Positions 1,884 through 20,891 of a stretch of 30,147 bases of DNA are shown here, in pieces. The stretch's first letter is position 1. Each line of letters opens with the position of its first letter. Both the position numbers and the translations under genes were made by a program. The stretch is from Candidatus Magasanikbacteria bacterium RIFCSPHIGHO2_02_FULL_50_9b (GTDB lineage: Bacteria; Patescibacteriota; Patescibacteriia; Magasanikbacterales; 2-02-FULL-50-9b): contig MFQD01000018.1 of NCBI GenBank assembly GCA_001782975.1, forward strand, positions 9,658 through 39,804, given 5' to 3'. A model generated the notes under the pieces. The model was given only the letters and a program-made list of their open reading frames with translations. It was not told the DNA's origin and searched no databases.

Positions 1884-1957
1884 GGGCCCGTAGCTTAGTT
1901 GGTTAAAGCACAGTGCTTATAACGCTGGGATCGATGGTTCGAATCCATCCGGGCCTA
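1884..1957 (+). tRNA. tRNA-Ile(UAU)
   Basis: Cloverleaf: acceptor GGGCCCG/CGGGCCT, D arm GCTT..AAGC, anticodon stem CAGTG/CGCTG with loop CT-TAT-AA (TAT at 1918-1920), T arm GATGG-TTCGAAT-CCATC, discriminator A; CCA not encoded. Confidence 0.92.
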
Positions 1958-18546: not shown

Positions 18547-18753
18547 GTAAGAGTCACAACTTAATCCTTAGTGCCGGGACAATGGCACCGCTTAGATCCT
18601 GCCCGAATGGGCAAGGCAACCGGGGAAATCTGTCGGGAGCCAGATGGACTATAGCGACTAACTACAAAGTGGTTGGGAGATTTCATTCACAGCTGTGCGC
18701 CGAGTGGTGCGCGCGGCATGGTGGATTTAATTTCCGAGCCACCTTTATTTTTT
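18547..18753 (+). ncRNA. ssrS: Probable 6S RNA (about 200 nt)
   Basis: Own promoter and GGTGG/CCACC + T-run terminator; long-range rod pairing ATCC/GGAT, GTGCCG/CGGCAT, GCACCGCTT/GAGTGGTGC; CGGGAGCC and 3' GCGGCAT motifs resemble known 6S RNAs as I recall them. Confidence 0.55.
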
Positions 18754-18760
18754 GCGGCAT

Positions 18761-19543
18761 ATGTATACTGTAAATGTAGATGATTATTTCCACACACCTC
18801 TTATATCACCTGAAGATGTTGCGGAGCACCGACAAACTGCTGGGACGTTTGAGAGTTATGATGACGCGCTTGCGTATGCGCAAGGCATTGTGGAATCTGT
18901 GTATCGCGGGGCGTTGATTGCGGCTGAAGGCGATGATCAGATGATGGGGGTGTATTGGGCACATCATGGCGAGGATGCATGGATTTCTCCAGCCCTTGAT
19001 GGGCGTGAACGCTTTTCTGCGAGCGATTACTTCACACAATTGTGTGAGACGCCAGAACACCGTGCGAGTGTGCTCGTCCTTACGCGCATCCCGGGCATGC
19101 GCAAGGGCACGACGGACAAGCCCGCATACACGCATTCGTTTCATGTGCGGGATTTGCTCGAGGAACATGGATACGGTTTCGACGTTTGTCTGGCGGGGCT
19201 CCTGCATGACATTGTCGAGGATGGCGGCGTGTCTTTGGCGGAGTTGCGCGCGGCAGGGTTTAGCGAGCGCGTCGTTGGGCTCGTGGATTTGTGTTCGCAT
19301 GACGCGTCGATTGAGGGCAACGATGCGCGTTGGGTTGTTATGATTGCGCGATTGGTGCAGGCTGACGACTCCGATGCCTGGGCAATTAAGGTTGCGGATT
19401 TGCTGGATAATTTAAGGGATTCGGGGACGATGGAGGTGGAGTGGAGGGAGTGGATGATGGGAGTTAAGAGGGCGTTGATGGGGAGGGTGGCGAGGGGAGT
19501 GGAAGAATTTCTTGTAAAAAGCTTATCGAAGCTCCCTAATTGA
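18761..19543 (+). CDS. HD-domain protein, RelA/SpoT-type small alarmone hydrolase-like, with N-terminal extra domain
   Basis: PAYTHSFHV, AGLLHDIVED, IKVADLLDNL in the C-terminal 160 aa; about 100-aa unrelated N-terminal domain. Confidence 0.8.
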   Translation: MYTVNVDDYFHTPLISPEDVAEHRQTAGTFESYDDALAYAQGIVESVYRGALIAAEGDDQMMGVYWAHHGEDAWISPALDGRERFSASDYFTQLCETPEHRASVLVLTRIPGMRKGTTDKPAYTHSFHVRDLLEEHGYGFDVCLAGLLHDIVEDGGVSLAELRAAGFSERVVGLVDLCSHDASIEGNDARWVVMIARLVQADDSDAWAIKVADLLDNLRDSGTMEVEWREWMMGVKRALMGRVARGVEEFLVKSLSKLPN

Positions 19544-19826: not shown

Positions 19827-20322
19827 AAGACTAAAAAGATAAATTAAGCACCTTACTACTGGGTGCCATAATTATGGTATCTTGTCAATAGCAAGGGCTG
19901 TGGAAAACTAGGCATGCGATTTCAGACTTTGCTTTCTGCACTGGTTGGATAATTTTTTTGAGGTTTAAGAAGAGTAAACTTAGTGGACTTGACACAGATA
20001 TTGCAGTTTGATCTAAGCAAGCGCATACTATCAGAGTTCGTTGCACATCCCAATTTATTCTCTGTTTAGAGCCAGAGAAAGCGTCATTCAATCCTAATGC
20101 ACACAGGGGATTGACCATCAAAAGTGCTACCTTGCCGAAACGAGAGTTTCGTCGGGTGCTCTAACACTGCCGACGGACTGTTTAGACAGCGTGGGCAGGG
20201 TAGACGCTTTTGGTGGTTTTTCATTTTTCGCTTGACGATTCCCGACGGGTTTAGGAAGTATTTGACCGTCGGGAGCACTTAAGCTCCGAGTGACTGCCTT
20301 CGCAGTTGAAAATTACTGGTTT

Positions 20323-20463
20323 ATGCCATACATTTTCCGGAAGTGCACCACCATCAATGGCGTGTATCGCTGTAAGCGCAAAGGCGTATTTCGCTTTTGG
20401 GTGGATAGTGAAAAGCCAAACGATGGGAAACTAAAAGAGACCGACGAAAACGTCAGTCTCTAG
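20323..20463 (+). CDS. 46-aa small basic protein missed by the ORF track
   Basis: MPYIFRKCTTINGVYRCKRKGVFRFWVDSEKPNDGKLKETDENVSL; followed by a plus-strand terminator at 20473-20518. Confidence 0.5.
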   Translation: MPYIFRKCTTINGVYRCKRKGVFRFWVDSEKPNDGKLKETDENVSL

Positions 20464-20521
20464 TAGTTTCGCAATCAAAGCCGCCGTTGTTCTTAGCGGG
20501 ACGCGGCGGTTTTTGATTTGT
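20428..20521 (-). ncRNA. Predicted antisense RNA overlapping the 3' end of the 46-aa ORF
   Basis: Minus-strand TTGACA (20551-20556)-17-CACAAT (20528-20533); terminator hairpin 20436-20461 whose single C/A mismatch becomes G-U only on the minus strand, followed by UUUAGUUU. Confidence 0.5.
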
Positions 20522-20891
20522 TCGGGCATTGTGTATTAAAAGCGGTTTTTTGTCAAGTATGAAGTCGCCCGACTCCCAATGTATTGTTAGTATAACACAA
20601 GTTCTCTGGGGATAACACTATTGCCACATTTTATAACAAATCAGGATTAATGTTACTAAAATAGCTCCTAATAAGTATCCAATTTGTTTGAAATAGTGCG
20701 CAAGATCCCCTCGCACAAGATTGAGTAAACCTTTTGTTTCGTAGACTGATTGAAAAATAGCTTCTTGTGTTGTGTCTTGATTTTTTTCCATAGTACTTTC
20801 ACTATATCACACACGTATGTCTCTATAGGATAAGTGTTGAAAACTCTGTCACTATGGCATTTGTTTGCATTTTCAACTAATATTAGTCAGT

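Follow-up and report, generated by a model that had tools for sequence, protein, structure and literature searches.

The locus considered here raises the question of what is encoded in an approximately 1-kb gene-free stretch of a Patescibacteria genome (780 kb, 88% complete) in which the initial annotation had placed a type I toxin-antitoxin-like locus. Within the window, by which is meant the whole 30,147-nucleotide stretch of DNA that was analysed, this site is occupied by a cassette of about 570 bases (~19990-20560) that comprises a leader RNA (R1), a spacer hairpin, a 46-aa ORF and a predicted convergent antisense RNA. The type I description holds for the layout, with its 3' overlap, conserved promoter and terminator and covarying stems, but not for the protein, which lacks the hydrophobic segment typical of type I toxins. 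The explanation favored here, tentatively and somewhat short of even confidence, is that the cassette is a type I-like, RNA-gated locus of the 3'-overlap kind and that the copy in the window has been disarmed. At the level of sequence, the parts of the cassette, their conservation, their strand and their linkage are demonstrated.

The distribution of the cassette is revealing of its history. Comparison with other genomes places the same cassette in at least nine lineages, and R1 lies directly 5' of an ORF of one small-protein family in the window and at loci L002, L003, L009, L013, L029, L030 and L033. A covariance model search found R1 in 3 of the 151 genomes of the order, and a second covariance model gave no match in 150 further genomes of the phylum. 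Additional copies occur in metagenome and IMG/VR contigs, each 35-95 nt upstream of a small ORF, and one copy of the cassette is on an IMG/VR contig. The genes that flank the cassette are unrelated from locus to locus. R1 is rare in these genome sets, yet 85-88% identical across three families, and this combination counts in favor of mobility, as does the frequency of ImmA/IrrE peptidases, integrases and transposases beside members of the family. The cassette is, as far as sequence comparison can establish, a stand-alone, horizontally spread unit of variable or mobile DNA in CPR/Patescibacteria.

In the window, the cassette is bordered on one side by an HD-domain gene of high GC content (18752-19543) together with a small ORF on the minus strand, and on the other by a MazG-like gene, after which comes a Schlafen-type helicase gene. 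The HD_4-domain gene (plus strand) has a GC content of 0.52-0.60 compared with 0.31-0.39 in its flanks and is probably foreign cargo. A tRNA-Ile with the anticodon TAT, an uncommon isoacceptor among bacteria, is located at 1884-1957 (+) and is followed by island-like genes; a tRNA suspected by eye beside the L003 cassette was not confirmed by ARAGORN. Across the cassette, ten contigs of this strain recovered from other samples show 100% identity, and strain variation is therefore uninformative on selection upon the window ORF. On the 189-kb contig L004, labelled Candidatus Udaeobacter, an R1 copy (2090-2280, -) exactly matches the one in the Patescibacteria genome G044 (L003); L004 is either the G044 MAG under a second name or mis-binned.

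The initial annotation had described a structured leader. Its stems are present, among them CGAAAC paired with GTTTCG around a GAGA loop (20136-20151), but the leader is more than a set of stems: R1 (20050..20227, +) is a discrete conserved RNA of about 175 nt, delineated by a covariance model, covariation and the MFE fold, and it starts some 50 nt upstream of the leader as first reported. When the region was compared by BLASTN with 60 relatives, the matched part was restricted to 20080-20221, at 85-88% identity, in two genomes from the same order but other families. The aligned conserved block extends from about 20050 to 20226 with a U-run at its end, and the covariance model scores are 197 bits (model R1) and 179 bits (model R2).

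All elements of R1 lie on the plus strand. Two hairpins, H1 (20058-20079) and H2 (20089-20113), precede a 24-bp closing stem, P1 (20114-20136 with 20195-20217), which closes a four-way junction with hairpins Ha (20137-20150, whose GAGA loop is a stable tetraloop), Hb (20151-20174) and Hc (20178-20189); a U-run at 20217-20221 gives the RNA a terminator-like end. Seven bases in the loop of H1 (20066-20072) pair with the loop of Hb (20158-20164) as a kissing loop, an interaction that is outside the covariance model. In an alignment of seven sequences, 93.8% of cells at the R1 pairs are paired, versus 38-54% in slid controls, and compensatory changes are found at 20 of 44 pairs. The kissing loop is 100% paired with compensatory changes at three of its six pairs, and an eighth sequence left out of model building (L029) also keeps a complementary pair of loops. 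Relative to L002, the window copy itself carries compensatory kissing-loop changes, which suggests continued selection on R1. The sequence of H2 differs in each lineage, and the stem bases of R1 include invariant ones. The MFE fold reproduces the architecture (z = -4.65), as do single-sequence folds in eight of eight cases, with the given strand the more stable in seven of eight. R1 is a discrete, conserved and complex-folded RNA with what appears to be its own promoter as well as its terminator-like end.

The promoter of R1 was assigned by homology to 20001..20031 (+), with a -35 TTGCAG (20001-20006), a 19-nt spacer and a -10 TACTAT (20026-20031). A promoter-like site is found just upstream of every R1 copy, and counterparts at equal distance from the RNA read TTGCAA-18-TACAAT in L002, TTGGCG-18-TATAAT in L003 and TTGACA-17-TAAAAT in L030 and L033. 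The site in the window is a weak match to the consensus, which counts against the favored explanation. A perfect TTGACA at 19989-19994 (+) lies 6 nt upstream of the assigned -35, occurs in the same place in L002 and mirrors the minus-strand TTGACA at 20556-20551.

R1 obtained no match in Rfam 15 at gathering score, and at E up to 10 the search returned three chance-level matches to unrelated eukaryotic or CRISPR models. A housekeeping RNA (6S, SRP, RNase P, tmRNA) was rejected on the absence of Rfam and ARAGORN matches and the presence of R1 in only three of the 151 genomes of the order. Coding frames across R1 (20124-20282 on the plus strand, 20084-20278 on the minus strand and P0008) were rejected on the paired-RNA pattern of substitutions and the absence of a Pfam match. 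P0008, a public gene call of 112 aa, starts within R1 and continues into the small ORF, and has an N-terminal stretch similar to the spurious frame 20124-20282; the call is an artefact of annotation to which the R1 RNA gave rise. No tandem repeats were found in 19900-20650, there is no direct-repeat array, and no alternative antiterminator pairing was found in R1. Searches with strict DNA patterns for R1 recovered duplicates of known loci from genome contigs and, from viral contigs, one chance match in a high-GC coding region that had no model match. Complementarity between R1 and the tail of the ORF (9 nt in the window and, by eye, 8 nt in L002) was taken as chance, L030 showing none.

Between R1 and the ORF lies a spacer hairpin, H5 (20230..20284, +), with an outer stem (20230-20235 with 20279-20284) and an inner stem (20239-20248 with 20266-20275) that fold with z = -2.8. 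The inner stem includes the TCCCGACGG/CCGTCGGGA pairing at 20240-20274, so that the second upstream stem noted in the initial annotation is real as well. A long hairpin is found at the equivalent place in L002, L009, L030, L033 and L029, and in the module loci no Shine-Dalgarno sequence precedes the AUG.

The elements that had been proposed for the 3' end of the cassette were all recovered. The plus transcript has an intrinsic terminator at 20471..20521 (+), an inverted repeat followed by a U-run, with a folding energy of -25 kcal/mol on the plus strand versus -15 on the minus strand. The convergent promoter (20528..20556, -) consists of a -35 TTGACA (20556-20551), a 17-nt spacer and a -10 CACAAT (20533-20528). 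It is predicted to start an antisense RNA of about 95 nt (20426..20521, -) that ends within the last codons of the ORF, with a terminator stem at 20461..20436 and a U-rich tail at 20435..20426. This hairpin of 11 pairs is favored on the minus strand (-17.2 kcal/mol versus -12.7 on the plus strand), its G.U pairs are available to the antisense RNA only, and the predicted 96-nt antisense RNA folds with z = -7.3 relative to shuffles.

Consensus scans of this region gave chance numbers of such elements (5 promoter-like sites versus 3.9 expected; 1 terminator versus 0.9 expected), and the observation rises above chance because unrelated loci carry these parts in matching positions. More specifically, a script scanned both strands around the stop codons of 48 distinct family ORFs. 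In most module loci, some of which were read by eye, the minus strand carries a -35 of the TTGACA type, with a spacer of 17-18 nt, at a distance of 43-81 nt beyond the stop codon. The clade that carries R1 shares a C-terminal tail, ..KKEP....TDS.., encoded by DNA that on the minus strand forms a hairpin with six or seven T after it; the sequence of this terminator is conserved within the clade. The antisense terminator is in the equivalent place in L002, L003, L013, L026-L030 and L033; in L009 the hairpin is present but its U-run is poor, and in the window and L003 the equivalent place is occupied by a terminator of different sequence. The stem positions covary between loci, and the antisense strand is favored by 2-7 kcal/mol in nine of ten module loci, being the more stable because its G.U pairs would be C.A mismatches in the mRNA. 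Across some nine or ten loci the antisense promoter and terminator are conserved while the convergent genes are unrelated. Conservation thus demonstrates support for both of these predicted elements.

In the window, the convergent reading frame is a 57-aa ORF at 20618-20791 (-), called by gene callers, that has a strongly hydrophobic C-terminal segment (15-residue hydropathy 2.68) and no terminator of its own before the minus-strand terminators of the cassette. The minus-strand terminator could also serve this ORF. A conserved convergent hydrophobic ORF as the real toxin was considered and rejected: the convergent ORFs are unrelated at other loci, and for that of the window no homologue was found among 150 genomes of the order or a set of 5.8 billion proteins.

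These elements may be assembled into an arrangement in which a tiny protein gene would be held down by RNA at three levels. Transcription from the cassette's own promoter would produce R1 first, and its 24-bp closing stem and U-run would stop most polymerases, such that the ORF would be reached by read-through only. The read-through mRNA, with its long spacer hairpin and without a Shine-Dalgarno sequence, would then initiate translation poorly. Finally, the convergent promoter would supply the ~95-nt antisense RNA, whose sequence is complementary to the end of the ORF (its last codons) and to the terminator that follows; pairing over approximately 90 nt may lead to cleavage of the duplex or to a blocked 3' end.

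What this arrangement would restrain is a member of a large family of small proteins. A profile search of 1.84 billion representative proteins yielded 423 family clusters at E <=0.001, counted at 50% identity; nearly all are 40-60 residues long, and those linked to R1 are 46-51 aa. The ORFs that follow R1 in L002 and elsewhere share the core RPWITL..NGKRLYA. At the family level the substitution pattern is that of a protein-coding gene: over a 24-codon core, pN/pS is 0.35 for 46 family sequences and 0.26 for the module clade, versus 1.26-1.56 in the other two frames, which indicates that the family is translated. Pfam and NCBIfam gave no match to any of these clusters, and no cluster is informatively named. 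The AlphaFold (AF2) model of the family is a confident small beta-rich soluble core (pLDDT 83), with nothing in the PDB at E <=0.001 (Foldseek), nothing at Z >=2 in VIA-align wide, only unnamed clusters below 0.9 in an ESM Atlas feature search and only weak matches in PHROGs (E about 0.006). Against PDB sequences, the family profile A5 has a 21-residue local match (E 0.011) to the wing of MarR-type SlyA (1lj9), which is too short to count as homology. The small protein probably binds nucleic acids rather than acting on membranes.

In most members of the family the ribosome-binding site is ordinary and both R1 and the antisense terminator are absent, and the family as a whole therefore need not be toxic. 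Together with the solubility of the peptide, this counts against a plain toxin. One alternative is that the protein is not toxic but regulates by binding DNA or RNA, in the manner of an excisionase or anti-repressor, and acts as the switch of a mobile element, its dose set by the 3'-overlapping antisense RNA as in OOP/cII, with R1 as an attenuating leader. Although unlikely, it has points in its favor: the unguarded majority of the family, the small, basic, beta-rich predicted fold, the weak local similarity to the wing with which a MarR-type regulator contacts DNA and the company that the family keeps. Among 82 flanking ORFs, Peptidase_M78 occurs seven times and phage integrase three times, alongside HTH_3 and transposases, and family members occur on IMG/VR contigs. 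However, the cassette stands alone in the window, L003 and L002, with neither integrase nor repressor adjoining, three layers of repression would be unusual for a harmless regulator, and no fold match supports DNA binding. At loci L009-L070 the commonest neighbour, accounting for the seven Peptidase_M78 genes, is of the ImmA/IrrE type, a hint that the family belongs to the regulatory regions of prophages or integrative elements. At L010 (2800-2900, 3100-3135) a family member without R1 lies beside a phage integrase, with another terminator-ended structured stretch upstream and an antisense hairpin and U-run at the stop codon.

The ORF of the window (20323..20463, +; ATG at 20323, stop at 20461-20463) was correctly described at first as encoding a basic, non-hydrophobic peptide of 46 aa. 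Its pI is 9.4, its GRAVY is -0.78 and its best 15-residue hydropathy is 0.17, with no hydrophobic or transmembrane segment by hydropathy. It is not an orphan, however, but a diverged and probably decayed member of the RPWITL..NGKRLYA family. Against a profile of 37 family sequences it aligns with a probability of 88% and E 2.9e-6 (hhalign), its score of 27.8 compares with a maximum of 17.7 among 200 shuffles, and it is placed relative to R1 as canonical members are. The best-conserved residues of the family are P, T, G, R, Y, A and G (alignment A5); as read from the alignment, the window peptide retains T, G and Y only, with K in place of P, R in place of A, and deletion of both the R and the second G. 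The peptide of L003 is eroded in a similar way, and both decayed copies have kept the ATG start, a similar length and the basic charge. The conservation of R1 is far above that of the peptide. The 85-88% identity of R1 among the window, L002 and L003, together with the paired kissing-loop changes in the window, indicates that the RNA is constrained more strongly than the peptide, and an RNA function of its own fits this better than a mere brake on the ORF. That R1 outlives the peptide also counts against a plain leader.

Decay of this kind invites a second alternative, that in the window the RNAs alone matter: the 46-codon frame would be a dead remnant open by chance, R1 would be trans-acting or ligand-sensing, and the minus-strand hairpin would be the terminator of the convergent 57-aa gene. 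Besides the loss of four of the seven conserved residues and the compensatory kissing-loop changes relative to L002, it draws on the failure of the family HMM to detect the peptide in a genome-wide hmmsearch, on the absence of a close homologue among 5.8 billion proteins, on gene callers having skipped the ORF on ten other contigs of the same strain and on the chance of such an open frame, which by our own estimate is about 1 in 10. This alternative is nevertheless rather unlikely, given that the start, length and charge are kept in both decayed copies, that the peptide still scores far above shuffles and that the antisense promoter and terminator are conserved where the convergent genes are unrelated. 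Quite improbable, finally, is a ribonucleoprotein or type III-like pair in which R1, as the principal product, would bind the small basic protein or sequester it, in a ToxI-terminator-ToxN layout, with the antisense RNA as a second brake, since the gene order (promoter, structured RNA, terminator, protein gene), the restriction of R1 to this protein clade and its conserved complex fold with invariant stem bases are offset by the lack of tandem repeats, by a protein of 46-51 aa that is not a ToxN-type RNase and by the retention of R1 beside decayed peptides in the window and L003, which argues against an obligate pair.

Thus, the RNA-gated, type I-like locus remains the favored explanation, and the window copy, its peptide having lost key residues while the RNA parts are intact, is most likely a relic that has been disarmed but retains its RNAs; judged from its alignment to the family, the peptide is probably degenerate. 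With the window copy probably a relic, its local biological impact is small, and the significance of the cassette lies elsewhere. R1 represents a new RNA fold, with a four-way junction, a kissing loop, unusually clean covariation from only eight sequences and a fixed genetic partner, and is a good candidate for structure probing and for a ligand or protein partner. The cassette also provides the first genomic context for a family of 423 clusters that gene finders routinely miss or mis-call. If the canonical protein is toxic, the type I class widens to a soluble basic mini-protein and to CPR bacteria, in which type I systems are, to our knowledge, essentially undescribed. A bolder proposal, and a doubtful one, is that R1 defines a new kind of functional RNA, whether a riboregulator that senses a ligand or a protein or an RNA antitoxin that binds the tiny basic protein; with the antisense RNA it would form a type I/type III chimera guarding a non-membrane mini-toxin and spread by mobile DNA among CPR bacteria.

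Several known systems resemble the cassette in part. In txpA/RatA and bsrG/SR4 of Bacillus subtilis, a stand-alone ORF of fewer than 60 codons with a structured 5' UTR is overlapped at the mRNA 3' end by about 90 nt of a short convergent antisense RNA, in islands or mobile DNA. The cassette likewise has a stand-alone small ORF, a convergent promoter, a predicted 3' overlap of approximately 90 nt, a structured 5' region and a location in islands or mobile DNA. As in type I systems, there is a very small product (46 aa), a promoter and terminator of its own and, in silico, a cis antisense RNA, whereas the hydrophobic or transmembrane toxin of the common class is lacking. Unlike the Bacillus toxins, the peptide is basic and without a transmembrane segment, and what precedes the ORF is a complex, conserved RNA that has a terminator of its own and is more than an occluding fold. 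SymE/SymR and RalR/RalA of E. coli involve small basic proteins that act on nucleic acids under antisense RNA control, and such non-membrane toxins are the only type I class that the peptide could resemble in kind. No similarity to SymE/RalR-type toxins was found in sequence or fold (Pfam, NCBIfam, HMM scans, PDB), and SymR and RalA overlap the 5' end or coding start, whereas the antisense RNA of the cassette overlaps the 3' end.

Beyond type I systems, R1 is similar to kissing-loop leaders and riboswitches (cobalamin, lysine) in having a multi-helix junction and a loop-loop contact upstream of a gene, with a terminator-like stem at the end. It differs in that it belongs to no Rfam family, its 24-bp closing stem forms without a ligand, no antiterminator pairing was found and the following gene encodes a tiny protein. 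The lambda OOP RNA is a short convergent antisense RNA that overlaps the 3' end of cII, a small regulator gene in a mobile element; the antisense RNA of the cassette is likewise short, convergent and 3'-overlapping, but there is no homology, and the cassette is often outside a recognisable prophage. With type III systems (ToxIN, CptIN), in which the terminator sets an excess of RNA over protein, the likeness is one of layout. R1 is not an array of tandem repeats such as forms the type III antitoxin RNA, and the protein is of about 46-51 aa rather than an endoribonuclease of about 170 aa. The order of promoter, RNA, intrinsic terminator and protein gene is nonetheless the same, with RNA, terminator and protein gene in one operon and the closing stem and U-run of R1 located 60-95 nt ahead of the ORF at all module loci, and by this analogy R1 sits where the antitoxin RNA sits in type III systems.
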